Below, piece after piece: positions 1-24,305 of a stretch of 46,698 nt of DNA. The stretch's first letter is position 1. Each line of letters begins with the position of its first letter. Source of the DNA: an uncultured Candidatus Saccharibacteria bacterium (lineage in GTDB: Bacteria > Patescibacteriota > Minisyncoccia > Phycocordibacterales > WO2-35-19); NCBI GenBank assembly GCA_964630525.1, contig CAZVUY010000003.1, forward strand, positions 1 through 46,698, written 5' to 3'. The translations under genes and the position numbers were made by a program. The notes below the pieces were generated by a model that had not been told where the DNA came from, did not search any database, and saw only the letters and a program-made list of their open reading frames with translations.

Positions 1-1208
1 GAATGGAAACCATGGCGATAGTGTATAGGCACAAGCTGGCTTAACTGCGAGACGTCAGTGTCGAGCAGATGCGAAAGCAGAGCTAAATGAACCGATCGTA
101 CGCGTTAGACGCGGCGAAAGATTATCTGACAAAAGCTACTCCGGGGATAACAGGCTGGTTCCGCCTAAGCGTCCAGAGCGACGGCGGAGTTCGGCACCTC
201 GATGTCGGCTCATCTTATCCCGGGGGTGGAGAAGCTCCCAAGGGTATGGCTGTTCGCCATTTAAAAAGATACGCGAGCTGGGTTCAGACCGTTCAGAATG
301 AAATTGAAAAATTCAAAGAAGCAAAGAAGGAAAAATTAAAAAATCTTTCCATCTTTAAATCTTTCCTTTTTCAATTATGTTTTGGATAATCTGAATCCCT
401 TCGAGACAATTATAAATTTAATACTGTTATTTAAAATATTTTCGTTTATGAAAGAAAGTCCCAATTTTGCCTATTGAAAATAGTTGCAAAATTGAGGATC
501 CCGAGCTGAAAAGCGAGGGAATAGAAATCAATCAAATCACGGCGGACCCGTGAGATAGGCGAAGCCGCCATCTCATGGGTTTAAACTGACTAATATCGGG
601 AAACTCCTGAAAAGGATTATTCCGAGGGAAATATGTTCTTTCAAAAAGGAGTGGTGGACCATTGGGAGTTGATTCCTTTGGTACTACTTGTAGCCAGGAT
701 CTTTCTAGGGGATTCGAGCTTCGCCTTCAATGGCAATCAAGTGGGTATGCGTGACAAAGCACTACTCCTCCTTTTTGAGAGAATATATACCCGTAGAGAC
801 TAAACGTCAGTCTCCCGTAAAATTGCTAACGCAATCACGGGATGAAGCTATAGTCCGATCCCGCCAGTAATGGCGGCGTTGAAGCTCTAAGCTTTTAGCT
901 TTAAGCTCTCAGCTACTGTTGCGTGAGACAGGTTGGTCTCCTATCTACTGCAGGCGTTGATTCTTGAGGGGATTTGCTCCTAGTACGAGAGGACCGGAGT
1001 GAACTGACCTCTGGTGTACCTGCTGTCGTGCCAACGGCACCGCAGGGTAGCTAAGTCGGGAAAGGATAACCTCTGAAAGCATCTAAGAGGGAAGCCCACC
1101 CCAAGATTAGGAATCGTTATGAGAATCGTGAGAGATGATCACGTTGATAGGCGCTAGGTGTAAGTACAGTAATGTATTGAGCCAAGGCGTACTAATTTTC
1201 CATTCTAT
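1..1208 (+). rRNA. rrl: 23S rRNA, 3' part (domains V-VI). The window starts inside the gene, and the mature sequence is interrupted by an intron at 293-921.
   Basis: Collinear with E. coli 23S as recalled from memory: GGGGATAACAGGCT at 143-156, CACCTCGATGTCGGCTC at 195-211, GGGTATGGCTGTTCGCCATTTAAA at 242-265, and the sarcin-ricin loop AGTACGAGAGGACCGG at 982-997. The 3' end near 1205-1210 is approximate. Confidence 0.95.
293..921 (+). mobile_element. Group I intron in 23S rRNA, inserted after the equivalent of E. coli U2593. No ORF is present.
   Basis: The exon sequence GGGTTCAGACCGT (280-292) resumes as CGTGAGACAGGTTGGTC at 922. The 5' exon ends in T and the intron ends in G (921), as expected for group I. 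An R-like element TAGAGACTAAAC lies at 794-805 and an S-like element GAAGCTATAGTCC at 844-856. P7 pairing is GACT (798-801) with AGTC (852-855), closely resembling the Tetrahymena core CAGACUAAAUGUCGGUCGGGG...AAGAUAUAGUC. No ORF of 60 aa or more lies inside. Confidence 0.85.
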
Positions 1209-1379
1209 TAGGAAATTCGATAATCACATCACGACACCAATTACGAATGAAAAACGAATGACACGAATAAAAAATTTATTATTCGTAAATTCGTGTGAAT
1301 TCGTGGATTAGTGTCATGTAATATTTTATCCTGCCTTATGGGACTTCTCTAAAAAAGTGGTATGTTTTTTGTATATTTT

Positions 1380-1488
1380 GTTTTGGTGCCTCAACGCCGG
1401 GGTCACACCCGTTCTCATTCCGAACACGGAAGTTAAGCTCGGTAGTGGCGATGATACTCGAAAGGGGAAAGTAGCTAGGCGCCAGAAC
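1380..1488 (+). rRNA. rrf: 5S rRNA (canonical)
   Basis: Contains CCGAACACGGAAGTTAAGC (loop C / helix III region) and GGTAGTGGCGATGATACTCG. Helix I can close by pairing GTTTTGGTGCC with GGCGCCAGAAC, including G-U pairs. Confidence 0.9.
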
Positions 1489-1584
1489 AAAATACGCAAA
1501 TTTATCGCTCATGGTCCCGCCTTACAGGCGCTGTACACCTGTTCTATTTTTTTATTTCACTCTGTTCATAAAAAATTATCACAG

Positions 1585-1762
1585 GTCTTGCGGTCGGGTC
1601 CCACCCCGACCTCACCCGTTCTCACCTGCCCGCCCGTAGCTTCAGCGAAGGCGGGTTCCGAACACGGAAGCATGCCCCGTAGTCAGCTTTGCTGTACTAC
1701 TCGGGGTTAAGCTCGGTAGTGGCGATGATACTCGCAAGGGGAAAGTAGCTAGCCGCCAGCAC
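1585..1762 (+). rRNA. Second 5S-like gene carrying two internal hairpin insertions. It may be a variant 5S or a pseudogene.
   Basis: The flanks match the first 5S: CCCGTTCTCA, TCCGAACACGGAAG, and TTAAGCTCGGTAGTGGCGATGATACTCGCAAGGGGAAAGTAGCTAGCCGCCAGCAC. Extra blocks lie at 1626-1656 and 1671-1706. Helix I could still close (CTTGCGG with CCGCCAG, one mismatch). Confidence 0.6.
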
Positions 1763-1826
1763 AAAATATTTAATGCAAAAATCTCGCCAGCTTTAAACTC
1801 TTTTGTTTTTAATCTATAATTAAGTT

Positions 1827-22372: not shown

Positions 22373-22378
22373 TTAAGA

Positions 22379-22422
22379 AACCCCACACCACCTGGTTTCG
22401 TTAAAGGTTTTGGTGTGGGGTT
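22379..22422. terminator. Bidirectional-looking hairpin between convergent genes
   Basis: AACCCCACACCA (22379-22390) pairs with TGGTGTGGGGTT (22411-22422), giving a 12-bp stem. Confidence 0.6.
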
Positions 22423-22426
22423 AATA

Positions 22427-22570
22427 CTAAATGCCTGCAGTGGTCAAGATGCCGCCCAACCCGATTAGGCCCAAGCTTAGGAATAGCTTGAGTCCCTGGT
22501 TTTTGGGGGTTTTGAAATACAACCTAACACCCACAAACAAGGCCAATATACCGATTATTGGTATTGACAT
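22427..22570 (-). CDS. Unlisted 47-aa two-TM mini-protein
   Basis: My own translation: MSIPIIGILALFVGVRLYFKTPKNQGLKLFLSLGLIGLGGILTTAGI. A GGAAGGAGAG RBS lies upstream (reverse complement of 22578-22587). The hairpin above follows the stop. It is below the 60-aa track cutoff. Confidence 0.45.
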   Translation of the reverse strand: MSIPIIGILALFVGVRLYFKTPKNQGLKLFLSLGLIGLGGILTTAGI

Positions 22571-22661
22571 ATCGCTGCTCTCCTTCCTGTTTTGATTATA
22601 CAATGTATATGTAAATAATGCAAATTTTGGTCAATTCTCGATTCATGTTAAATTCATTGTA

Positions 22662-24305
22662 ATGAAAAGGGGCGAAAAAATTATTTTTGCTGGAATTGTC
22701 GCGGTTTTTATAGTTCTCCATATTTTTGGTTTAAGTCAGCCTTACCATCAAGACGAATACAAATGGCCGATTATTGTAAACCCACAGCTTACCGAGCCGG
22801 GTGGCATACCACATCCACCAGTAGGGGAGTTTATCTACCGACAAGCAGGGTTTTTGGTTGGGTATGACAACTTTCGTCTCATACCAGCCTTTTTTGGTCT
22901 TCTAAACTTATTACTTCTGTTTTATTTGGTAAAAAATATTTTTGACACCAGGACGGCTCTTTGGAGCACGGGTATTTTTGCTCTTTCTTTTTATTCTCTC
23001 CTCGCTTCTCTCATGGTTGATACCGATGGGGCGATCATGCCATTTTTCTTTCTTCTCATGGCGGTTGGGTACATGAAGCTTAGAGCTAAAAGCTTTGAGC
23101 TTAGAGATGGGGGATTCAAATGGCTGATTCTCTTAGGATCAGCTGCTATTTTAGGGTTTTTAGTTAAAGCAAGTTTTATTATAGGGATTGGTGCTCTGGT
23201 CTTGGATTTTATATTTGAGAAGGGTGTGTTTGGTGACAAGAAGAAGGTTTTAAAATATATTGTTTTAGGCTTAGGTATTTTTGCTTTGTTGATTATATTG
23301 CTGTTTCTTTCTAAATTAATCTTTCCTTTTTTCAATCTGCAATCTTCAATTTCATATTGGAGTCACTTTATTAAGTTTTCTGGTAGAGGCTGGATGCAGA
23401 CTTTTATACAATTTGTGAAAGGTCTTTTATACCTTTCTCCTTTGTTAGTCTTAACGCCTTTTCTGGTGACAAAAGAAGATTTTAAAAAAGTAAGACCTTT
23501 TATATTTTTCATTGTTCTTGGTTTGTTTTTTTACATTATTCTTTTTGATTTTTCAGCAGGTGCTTTGGACCGCTATTTGCAGTTTTTGGTAGTACCACTT
23601 TGTGTGATTTCCGGAGCGGTGATTGTTAAGGCCTCACTCCAGAGGTGTGAGGCGGTTTTTCCAATAATTTTATCTATCGCTGTTTTTTCTCTCCAATTTT
23701 TTAACCATCACGTTCCTCCTCTATACCCGAAGAGTGAATGGGTGAGCAGGGTATTTTCATTGAAGTGGAATTTTTTGTACCCGTTTAGCGGTGGGTCAGG
23801 TCCTTTGGGTTTCTATATTTCTTTTATGGCGATTGGAATTTTTTGGATTATTGGGGTGATACTAGTTATTACTTATTTTAAAAATAAAAACTTAAAGAGT
23901 GGAGTGGTAGTCGGTCTCTTGGTCATCGGCATCTTTTACAACGGAATCTTTATTGAAGAATATCTTTTTGGTCAGATCAATGGCTCAGCTAAAAAGCTGG
24001 TAAATGAGTCCGTAGCTTTTATTAAAGAAAATCCTGATATAGAGCGGGTAGTCGTTTACAATGACAACGGCGGGTTTGAGGTGATGAAAACAGGTAAGTA
24101 TGTCAGGCGTCTCTATGCTACCCCTCAATTTGAAGGAACCTATCGAGATTTTTTCAAGAACTTTTCCGGGCATGTTTTTTATCTAGATATTCCAAGAATA
24201 GGGGAAAATAATTTTTACTCTGAGTACTTAAATTCTTGCTTACATGTATATAAAAGTGAAGACGAATACATGACGTCTTGGATTTTATATTGCGATCGCG
24301 TGTAA
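22662..24305 (+). CDS. GT-C fold membrane glycosyltransferase (ArnT/PMT, GT39/GT83-like)
   Basis: 547 aa. N-terminal region HQDEYKWP...PHPPVGEFIY, about 12 TM segments, and a soluble C-terminal domain. Confidence 0.7.
   Translation: MKRGEKIIFAGIVAVFIVLHIFGLSQPYHQDEYKWPIIVNPQLTEPGGIPHPPVGEFIYRQAGFLVGYDNFRLIPAFFGLLNLLLLFYLVKNIFDTRTALWSTGIFALSFYSLLASLMVDTDGAIMPFFFLLMAVGYMKLRAKSFELRDGGFKWLILLGSAAILGFLVKASFIIGIGALVLDFIFEKGVFGDKKKVLKYIVLGLGIFALLIILLFLSKLIFPFFNLQSSISYWSHFIKFSGRGWMQTFIQFVKGLLYLSPLLVLTPFLVTKEDFKKVRPFIFFIVLGLFFYIILFDFSAGALDRYLQFLVVPLCVISGAVIVKASLQRCEAVFPIILSIAVFSLQFFNHHVPPLYPKSEWVSRVFSLKWNFLYPFSGGSGPLGFYISFMAIGIFWIIGVILVITYFKNKNLKSGVVVGLLVIGIFYNGIFIEEYLFGQINGSAKKLVNESVAFIKENPDIERVVVYNDNGGFEVMKTGKYVRRLYATPQFEGTYRDFFKNFSGHVFYLDIPRIGENNFYSEYLNSCLHVYKSEDEYMTSWILYCDRV
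23077..23108. repeat. AGCT-phased heptad array VII
   Basis: AGCT at 23077, 23084, 23091 and 23098, with AGAT at 23105. Confidence 0.8.

Follow-up and report, generated by a model that had tools for sequence, protein, structure and literature searches.

Short heptanucleotide tandem arrays inside glycosylation genes of a Parcubacteria lineage

Heptanucleotide repeats are the most abundant class of long simple sequence repeats (SSRs) in many prokaryotes, and polymerase slippage over a 7-nt contact has been suggested to underlie them (Mrázek, Guo and Shah 2007, as relayed in PMC4679880 and PMC4692102). In Geobacter metallireducens, for example, four tandem copies of GGGACCG occupy 49 inter- and intragenic sites (PMC2700814). 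Other known heptamers include the short tandemly repeated repetitive sequences (STRRs) of Calothrix and Nostoc (GGGGAYT in Nostoc), GGGAATC in Xanthomonas, where inverted pairs also occur, and TAACTGA in Beggiatoaceae. Repeats of this kind have been known since 2007 and are still unexplained, and a literature search found no publication on heptamer repeats in Patescibacteria or the candidate phyla radiation (CPR). Here we describe AGCT-containing arrays of exact 7-nt period in positions 1-46,698 (forward strand) of contig CAZVUY010000003.1 (GCA_964630525.1), a stretch (the window) that was analysed in full and that, according to domain searches of its open reading frames (ORFs), is a cell-envelope or polysaccharide glycosylation locus of Parcubacteria (CPR). 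The AGCT arrays exemplify short heptanucleotide tandem repeats, 28-45 nt or about 4-6 units long, that pervade this Parcubacteria lineage.

STRRs are a few high-copy families of tandem heptanucleotides that lie mostly between genes, and Vioque is said to have described, in 1997, cyanobacterial STRR arrays inside the RNase P RNA gene. The gene for NeuO, the phage-borne O-acetyltransferase of the K1 capsule, carries one long perfect heptanucleotide tract at its 5' end; this repeat yields a 7-residue peptide repeat, and a change in copy number between strains switches the frame. Rickettsia palindromic elements (RPEs) are palindromic insertions of 100-150 bp that are absent from orthologues. The arrays described here share with cyanobacterial STRRs the tandem heptanucleotides and the possibility of residing in a peripheral helix of a structured RNA (one array lies in the 3' peripheral part of a 23S rRNA intron), although they belong to another phylum and consist of other units. 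As in NeuO, a 7-nt repeat is read in three frames within the gene of a glycan-modifying enzyme; unlike in NeuO, a gene carries several arrays, which are short and mostly imperfect, perfect tracts in 950 kb of related DNA reach five copies at most, and close strains show no change in copy number. Like RPEs, the arrays are tolerated in frame at permissive positions of protein-coding and RNA genes, whereas they are about 30 nt long, tandem and mostly non-palindromic, and at the sites tested they stand in place of existing sequence, its length altered slightly or not at all.

A preliminary description of this DNA listed seven AGCT arrays, and all seven are present at every coordinate named, with AGCT, or a form of it with one base changed, returning exactly every 7 nt. 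Their hosts are also as claimed, namely the insertion and intron of a 23S rRNA gene, the tail of a VirD4/TrwB-like ATPase, a GT4 glycosyltransferase, a GT4-GtrA fusion and a PMT_2/GT-C protein. The pattern (AGC-N4)x4 has 11 matches in the window against 0.00 expected. AGCT tetramers stand 7 nt apart 16 times, 14 nt apart 13 times and 21 nt apart seven times, against 0.8 expected per distance, and no other spacing within 5-60 nt occurs more than four times. The 11-mer AGCTCTAAGCT, likewise reported as repeated, has three matches on each strand, where dinucleotide shuffles predict 0.04. DNA uptake signals consist of one fixed 9-12-mer spread densely and evenly over a genome, often as terminator pairs; in a comparison with them, which covered the window, this 11-mer proved confined to the arrays (six matches, all within 883-23087), and it varies among relatives. 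Tandem Repeats Finder called period 7 at 882-914, 14206-14227, 15074-15101, 16848-16872, 17147-17181, 18351-18375 and 23077-23106.

The periodicity does not survive a change of codons. In the 41 ORFs of the window, 12 AGCT pairs lie 7 nt apart, against 1.0 (maximum 6) when synonymous codons were permuted within genes so that the protein was unchanged (200 trials), and 0.46 when codon order was shuffled; runs of three AGCT in a row number six, against 0.02 under synonymous permutation. The codons used in the arrays are also minority ones: AGC accounts for 14% of Ser codons, GAG for 34% of Glu codons and AAG for 26% of Lys codons. The loss of periodicity under synonymous permutation and the use of minority codons place the signal in the DNA rather than among the by-products of a peptide, and the preliminary description was right to look for the constraint at the DNA level, one copy being located in a non-coding intron. 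These results bear directly on an explanation by selection on protein, in which heptad peptides such as ELRAKSL and RIKNYEL would be favoured as amphipathic helices or linkers, with 7-nt repeats as an easy route to them. Indeed, several sites encode SLEL.A.SL, a peptide in keeping with the L..LA..L pattern of the GT4 helix, and one relative (L209; labels of this kind denote the loci compared below) encodes a matching peptide with other codons. However, codon choice is constrained beyond the peptide, orthologous sites bear unrelated peptides (KALSSKLKAL versus IIHNSKFLIHNS) and yet always a 7-nt array, arrays are also found in the intron and between genes, and a heptad needs no period-7 DNA. 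We therefore give selection on the peptides little credence.

Array I (883-914; all arrays are given on the plus strand) consists of five AAGCTCT-type units, with AGCT at 883, 890, 897, 904 and 911, in the 3' peripheral part of the 23S insertion, just 3' of the intron match. Array II (14178-14228) has AGCT at 14178, AGCG at 14185, AGCT at 14192 and AGCG at 14199, followed, after a 9-nt step, by AGCT at 14208, 14215 and 14222; it is thus an inverted pair, in which four AAAGCTN/AGAGCTT-type units are separated by the 9-nt step from three AAGCTYN units of opposite sense. It lies in the VirD4/TrwB-like ATPase gene (12472-14274), in the part for a long C-terminal tail of low complexity, rich in lysine and glutamate, in which heptamer arrays are found in several lineages (L133, L134, L135 and L138). 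Two arrays lie in the GT4 gene 14329-15516. Array III (14878-14905; units AAAGCTT, CGAGCTA, AGAGATT and TTAGCTT; AGCT at 14878, 14885 and 14899, AGAT at 14892) encodes KSFELRDFSLG downstream of the NGVD motif, and array IV (15076-15107; AGCTTAG, AGCTTAG, AGCCAAG and AGCTTGA; AGCT at 15076, 15083 and 15097, AGCC at 15090) encodes SLELRAKSLKV, the first helix of the C-terminal Rossmann domain. In the GT4-GtrA gene (16619-18157), array V (16849-16880; AGCTCTC, AGCTCTA, AGCTCAA and AGCCTTA; AGCT at 16849, 16856 and 16863, AGCC at 16870) encodes KALSSKLKAL, whereas array VI (17348-17382; AGCTTAG, AGCTTTT, AGCTGAA, AGCTTAA and AGATAGA; AGCT at 17348, 17355, 17362 and 17369, AGAT at 17376) encodes SLELLAESLKIE in the helix equivalent to that of array IV, the two proteins being paralogous. 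Array VII (23077-23111; AGCTTAG, AGCTAAA, AGCTTTG, AGCTTAG and AGATGGG; AGCT at 23077, 23084, 23091 and 23098, AGAT at 23105) encodes KLRAKSFELRD in a loop of the PMT_2/GT-C gene 22662-24305. The forced peptides SLELRAKSL and KLRAKSFELRD had been read correctly, and odd peptides of this kind are by-products of a 7-nt repeat read in three frames.

The full unit behind AGCT is AAGCTCT, with AGAGCTT as its complement. Since 7 and 3 are coprime, a perfect array of either form puts a stop triplet (TAA or TAG) into all frames. The deviant unit of arrays IV and VI sits exactly at the would-be in-frame stop, as with AGCC-AAG in array IV, where TAG would be in frame, and GCT-GAA in array VI. Period 7 is also found in the window with other units. 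CACAAGT is repeated five times at 17147-17181 in the interdomain linker of GT4-GtrA (peptide HKSQVTSHKSQV), and at 18351-18378, in the GT4-like gene 18165-19229, AGTT and AGCT cores are mixed in one array (AGTTTGG, AGTTTGG, AGCTCGG and AGTTGGC; peptide SLEFGARSWQ). A weak TTCAATC-type array (TTCAATC, TGCAATC, TTCAATT and TCATATT; 23331-23358, self-match 15/21) in the GT-C gene 22662-24305 is shared with L209, while orthologues are non-periodic at that place, and a degenerate GAATTAT-type array, AGAATTATGAACCATGAATCTCGAATTAAGATT (16739-16771, self-match 14/21), encodes RIMNHESRIKI in GT4-GtrA. In the window as a whole, ten arrays reach at least 15/21 self-matches, where triplet shuffles give 0.26 and the other periods in the range 5-10 yield 0-2.

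The same period dominates in related bacteria. In 950 kb of Parcubacteria DNA from orthologous loci (labelled L002, L004, L207, L209 and so on), searched at a cut-off of at least 17/21 self-matches, period 7 is represented by 103 arrays, period 14 by 13 and any other period from 4 to 15 by at most five. The 112 unique arrays have a median length of 36.5 nt and dozens of different units (AAGAATT, AAAATTG, AATTTCC, AAGCTCT, AAAGCTT, ATCCGAA, AACCTAC, AGTTACA, AATATTA, TCGGATT and more), which are AT-rich (28% GC vs. 41%). Perfect tracts of three copies number 13, of four copies 19 and of five copies one, and none is longer; tracts of other periods never exceed three copies. About 85% of the arrays fall within ORFs, and a stop triplet, present in units such as AGCTTAG and GAATTAA, occurs in the consensus unit of 51 of the 94 in-ORF arrays. 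Two intergenic cases were seen at the margins of genes: an array of (TCTTATA/TCTTACC)n that immediately precedes the start codon of a stand-alone GtrA gene (L197, 11034-11092), and an inverted pair of GAAT-type arrays that makes a long stem directly after the DUF4015 stop codon (L002, 4829-4910).

With the heptanucleotide SSRs of other prokaryotes these arrays have in common an exact period of 7 far above all other periods, head-to-tail tandem units, short length (2-6 units, often 4-5), many dispersed loci, some inverted pairs, frequent stop-containing units, a patchy phylogenetic distribution and a proposed origin by slippage with a 7-nt ruler. However, the SSRs described in Xanthomonas, Nostoc and Beggiatoaceae are mainly intergenic, whereas 87% of the Parcubacteria arrays lie in open frames of at least 150 codons (93% of random segments do so), where they are translated and carry patched stops. 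Moreover, one or a few heptamers dominate in the systems known from the literature, while Parcubacteria contigs mix many units, and their arrays recur at equivalent protein positions in orthologues. The arrays are a mostly intragenic, translated variant of the heptanucleotide SSR class rather than a plain member of it.

The variety of units also decides how AGCT itself is to be regarded. Several different units coexist in a contig, and sharing of units is 19% within contigs against 10% between them. Such diversity argues against a single sequence-specific reader, and a dominant genome-specific heptamer served by a sequence-specific trans factor was considered and rejected, the within-contig excess being weak. 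An AluI-type methyltransferase, restriction enzyme or DNA-binding activity specific for AGCT that uses or shapes the arrays would fit the invariant AGCT core in the window as well as the AGCT/AGTT core differences between strains, which are such as deamination of 5-methylcytosine would give. Nonetheless, orthologous sites carry AATT, AATTTCC, ATCCGAA and other units that lack AGCT, and no AluI-type or other DNA methyltransferase or restriction gene is present among the ORFs of the 46.7-kb window. A palindromic tetramer is found in 74 of the 112 units, against 61 ± 4.7 in composition-matched shuffles, which is a weak enrichment once AT-richness is matched. Thus, the special status that the preliminary description assigned to AGCT does not hold, and an AGCT-specific activity is highly improbable; on the explanation preferred below, AGCT would be merely the core of the commonest unit in the glycosylation cluster of this genome.

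Four sites of GT4-GtrA (the N-terminal loop, the helix end, the interdomain linker and the first helix of the C-terminal domain) were compared over 22 orthologues. All four bear period-7 arrays in many lineages, with differing units. At the N-terminal site (16739-16771), orthologues L002, L005 and L128 reach self-matches of 16-18/21. At the site of array V, the window has AAGCTCT (KALSSKLKAL), L002, L005, L128 and L130 have ATAATTC in matching orientation (IIHNSKFLIHNS, IIHNSKF...), and L004 has a degenerate ATAATTC. The linker holds CACAAGT in the window, GAATTAA in L002 (ELRIKNYEL), an AGCT array in L004 (LKAKSLELRE) and a GC-rich hairpin in L005 and L128. A similar picture emerges for the GT-C loop of array VII, which has AGCT units in the window and L002, AATTACG in L207, AATTTTC in L135, AATTTCC in L133, a decayed AGCT array in L208 and non-periodic DNA in L140, L175 and L134. 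The conserved K-L-R of this loop is encoded by AAG CTT AGA in AGCT arrays and by AAA TTA CGA in the AATTACG array; since these codons switch with the unit family, synonymous codon choice follows the local repeat unit. The linker of GT4-GtrA is further marked in other lineages by perfect or near-perfect palindromes (L005 at 5237-5320, L128, L131, L133, L134 and L136; also L193 at about 1145), for example CCCTCTCCTTgcgAAGGAGAGGG and AAGGTCTCCCCTT...AAGGGGAGACCTT, and one palindrome of this linker type shows a 12-nt indel between 98%-identical strains. The accumulation of palindromes in the same linker would be expected from template-switch mutagenesis of an unconstrained stretch.

Orthologues also reveal what the arrays replaced. 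The helix of array VI has equal length in all of them, the DNA being periodic only at 58% or more identity to the window protein, and in distant orthologues it is encoded by non-periodic DNA. Array IV aligns without gaps to the solved GT4 structures 2jjm and 6kih, and the loop of array VII is constant in length within closer orthologues. Length differences of 2-7 residues do occur at some sites (III, V and the linker); at the site of array III, for instance, solved GT4 proteins are 5-7 residues shorter. The proposal of in-frame insertion in the manner of RPEs thus fails at the sites tested (IV, VI and VII), as gap-free or equal-length orthologues with non-periodic DNA and the alignments to GT4 proteins of the Protein Data Bank attest. 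These alignments indicate that the arrays at the tested sites arose in situ with little or no length change, and that RPE-type insertion is not the general rule. In the AlphaFold model of the GT4-GtrA protein (predicted local distance difference test, pLDDT, 86), the N-terminal array (16739) falls in a loop (residues 38-48), array V at the end of the helix 65-83, the CACAAGT array in a disordered linker (residues 178-187, pLDDT <50) and array VI in the helix 242-251 (pLDDT 97), which lies at the surface; the loops involved are modelled with low confidence.

What the analysis has shown, namely a periodicity that resides in the DNA, varied units, recurrence at the same sites and, where tested, origin in situ, is the basis of the explanation that we prefer. 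A DNA-level process with a 7-nt register would rewrite weakly constrained stretches into local heptamer copies, mostly without change of length. Candidates for such a process are misaligned pairing, slippage or template switching during replication or repair, which might be followed by copying or correction between neighbouring units, and selection would then retain only in-frame, stop-free versions. Taken as a whole, homogenisation combined with an open-frame filter has, in our judgement, an even chance of being correct; we infer both the mechanism of slippage or conversion and the absence of a dedicated function. Homogenisation and filtering would account for stop-containing units with one patched unit at the would-be in-frame stop, for placement in loops, linkers, a surface helix, a disordered tail and a peripheral intron stem, and for unit diversity, in-situ origin and codon switching. 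Arrays that appear intermediate were seen as well, with AGTT and AGCT units mixed in one array and with the decayed AGCT array of L208.

Comparison of close strains shows how the arrays change. L206, which is 99.9% identical over 7 kb, has identical arrays with no variation in unit number. In L209, which is about 90% identical in the GT4-GtrA gene, unit counts are unchanged, and AGCT/AGTT cores differ inside two arrays, including that at 18351-18378. The N-terminal array of L209 has been replaced wholesale, from a GAAT type to an AGYCTAG/AGCT type, with 38 of the 157 differences falling within 120 nt; its peptide matches that of array VI with other synonymous codons. Similarly, 52 of the 84 differences between L193 and L195 (98.2% identical) lie in about 75 nt at the GT4 helix, where one of the two strains has a (TCGGATT)n array that is also found elsewhere in its contig. 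Copy-number polymorphism was sought and discarded as a feature of these arrays: L206 and L209 have none, and the length variants of the 90% cluster are start-codon differences, truncations and one 7-residue indel off the array sites.

These observations bear on two further explanations. If the arrays were contingency loci, gain or loss of heptamers would toggle surface-glycan genes or shift linker length by 7 residues, much as in NeuO, a glycan-modifying enzyme for which heptanucleotide phase variation is known. Enrichment in the glycosyltransferase genes of a cell-envelope locus and perfect tracts of 4-5 units in several relatives would suit such a role. However, arrays in the window are imperfect and hence poor substrates for slippage, tracts of 4-5 units are short for efficient switching, copy number is constant in the 99.9% and 90% identical strains, and the sole 7-residue length variant among cluster members lies off the array sites. 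No gene broken at an array was seen in the related loci, the one frame-less array that was inspected (L197) being intergenic, and several arrays per gene at conserved positions, with a further copy in an rRNA intron, are unexpected for switches. A role as contingency loci is therefore decidedly unlikely. Mobile or convertible cassettes of RPE or STRR character, by contrast, would be spread by ectopic gene conversion or an unknown enzyme that overwrites about 30-75 nt at permissive positions. Consistent with cassettes are the six occurrences of AGCTCTAAGCT in 22 kb, the clustered differences between L193 and L195 with (TCGGATT)n elsewhere in the contig, the N-terminal swap in L209 and the presence of the AGCT type of array VII in the distant L002 and not in the closer L207. 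Nonetheless, arrays IV, VI and VII coincide with structural elements that already existed and have kept their length, the N-terminal array of L209 is not a fresh DNA copy of array VI, given its different synonymous codons, neither defined ends nor target duplications nor an associated transposase were seen, and short tracts of homologous recombination between divergent alleles, flanked by conserved GT4 motifs, would look alike. We regard cassettes as improbable.

It had also been proposed that the arrays could form hairpins or cruciforms, which as a general property does not stand. Among nine window arrays compared with dinucleotide shuffles, only two fold significantly better, namely array II as a hairpin (-24.1 kcal/mol, z = -4.7) and array VII as a 12-bp RNA hairpin (z = -3.9); no significant fold was found for arrays I (z = -1.5), III, IV, V and VI or the array at 18351, and the CACAAGT array is unstructured. 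Folding is relevant to the possibility that the arrays are functional cis-elements on DNA or mRNA, in which a multimeric factor contacting every 7 nt, or the structure of the repeat, tunes the glycosylation operon through pausing, stability or antitermination, with selection acting on nucleotides. Here the two hairpins count in favour, the stem of array VII being conserved while its loop differs between the window and L002, and RNA-binding-protein sites have been proposed for TAACTGA repeats (PMC4679880). Arrays VI and VII, moreover, have identical codons at 7/7 and 9/9 positions between lineages of 55-64% protein identity (background 0.47-0.49; P about 0.005 and 0.001), the partner of array VII being L002 (background 0.47). 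Array sites recur in orthologues, sizes are narrow with a mode of four perfect units, and the arrays are concentrated in one syntenic cluster. On the other side, units vary within a contig and between orthologous sites, which does not fit a single sequence-specific reader, the sense strand carries both orientations, seven of the nine arrays lack significant structure, 43 of the 80 related loci have no array at all, and arrays have decayed or been replaced in close relatives. We consider functional cis-elements unlikely.

Several of these observations weigh against homogenisation with filtering as well. A homogenising process does not account for a ruler of 7 nt, nor for the prevalence of about four copies, the concentration in a single cluster or the synonymous conservation over long distances. 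The non-monotonic distribution of perfect copies, with its mode at four, is not predicted by simple slippage, and the synonymous identity of arrays VI and VII could mean purifying selection on the nucleotide sequence. In a gene, plain slippage by one unit shifts the frame, and within an ORF it cannot propagate units that contain a stop, so that a length-neutral conversion step must be postulated. The two close-strain pairs with replaced arrays show whole-array replacement and not gradual change, and the identical arrays of L206 provide no variation in unit number. Array density is about five times higher in the GT4-GtrA gene than in its flanks, and all ten window arrays fall in 878-23358, though comparable sugar genes fill 24-46 kb; tolerance alone may therefore be insufficient to account for the clustering. 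It is conceivable, if rather doubtful, that some Parcubacteria possess an active, locus-focused process that rewrites coding patches of about 30 nt into about four heptamer copies, or that swaps patches between sites. Such a process would centre on one syntenic cluster, comprising the VirD4-like ATPase, the GT4s, GT4-GtrA and GT-C.

Period-7 arrays are not restricted to Parcubacteria. A scan of species genomes for (AGCT-N3)x4 provided at least 120 stretches from other phyla, an uncontrolled sample chosen for carrying one AGCT array. In the matches listed, the pattern is found in many phyla, with Acidobacteriota prominent, and no frequencies can be derived from them. In addition to these, at least 100 period-7 arrays built on other units were counted in the same stretches, where other periods gave no more than 16, and 33% of the arrays in this uncontrolled sample lie in long ORFs, against 86% of random segments. 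Among the matches listed, Acidobacteriota and other phyla frequently show inverted pairs, in which a unit array is followed by a spacer of 5-100 nt and a complementary array (for example L079 at 802-888, L010 at 2354-2510, L046 at 2012-2173 and L089 at 3233-3340, within L006-L125), and a recurrent unit in those of Acidobacteriota is (AGCTGAN)n.

Homologues of the proteins of the window carry the annotations Patescibacteria, Parcubacteria or Paceibacterota. The window encodes FtsW/RodA, a sugar transferase, SecDF, DUF4015 and the VirD4/TrwB-like ATPase, four GT4 glycosyltransferases (one of them fused to GtrA), two GT2 and two PMT_2/GT-C proteins, as well as methyltransferases, sugar-nucleotide enzymes and a Wzt ABC transporter. 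The order DUF4015, VirD4/TrwB-like ATPase, GT4 (window 11118-14274) is kept in the relatives checked (L002, L209 and L210), and in these and the window no type IV secretion gene other than the ATPase lies near this block. The array-rich glycosyltransferase block 14001-22000 has the lowest GC content of the window (36-40%) and its strongest positive GC skew (0.17-0.25); gene orientation and GC skew flip sign around 31-37 kb. A DUF559/Vsr-like endonuclease ORF (7697-8122, E = 3e-30) between an unannotated 151-residue ORF and secD is the sole nuclease-like gene of the window. The window starts with the 3' part of a bacterial 23S rRNA, after which comes the 5S rRNA. The 633-nt insertion that holds array I (294-926) lies in domain V, in the segment GUUCAGACCGUU...GACAGGUUGGUC, which we take to be the I-CreI-type intron site. 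It includes a match to the Rfam group I intron at 436-877 with 46 bits, below the gathering score of 50, and the Rfam search of the window returned the rRNAs and this sub-threshold match and nothing else. No homing-endonuclease ORF of at least 100 codons was found in 294-926. The 5' part of the insertion (305-375) contains 8-nt repeats, CAAAGAAG x2.5 and ATCTTTCC x3, that resemble two stem arms.

Close relatives differ from the window in other respects too. L206 is 99.9% identical at 14.2-21.2 kb, then diverges strongly for about 1.4 kb before identity returns; this block (21250-22650), which spans the end of the GT2 gene, a methyltransferase gene and a spacer, holds most of the 957 differing alignment columns, and L206 has in it an extra gene of 216 residues on the minus strand. 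The block looks like a replacement by recombination. In the 80%-identical relative L207, a diversity-generating retroelement (bAvd and an RVT_1 reverse transcriptase; 1-2750) that is absent from the window adjoins the VirD4-like gene, with a 133-nt template repeat at 1164-1296 and a variable repeat at 596-728 (82% identical) in a 223-residue gene. A link between it and the arrays was rejected: its repeats target another small gene and have no heptamer structure.

For the study of heptanucleotide repeats, this locus and its relatives are an unusually informative case. With arrays inside conserved enzymes, alignments of orthologues reveal their origin, the sequence that they replaced and the selective patching that followed, and the question of the 7-nt ruler thereby becomes addressable with comparative data. 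Annotators should be aware that peptides such as SLELRAKSL, RIMNYESRIK, NFQFPISNFQ and IIHNSKF in proteins of Patescibacteria are repeat-derived. If the process should prove to target surface-glycan genes, it would bear on envelope variation in these episymbiotic bacteria. Locus-focused rewriting, if real, would be an undescribed way to diversify or tune glycosyltransferases, and it would expose a molecular 7-nt ruler that may explain the excess of heptanucleotide repeats across bacteria.

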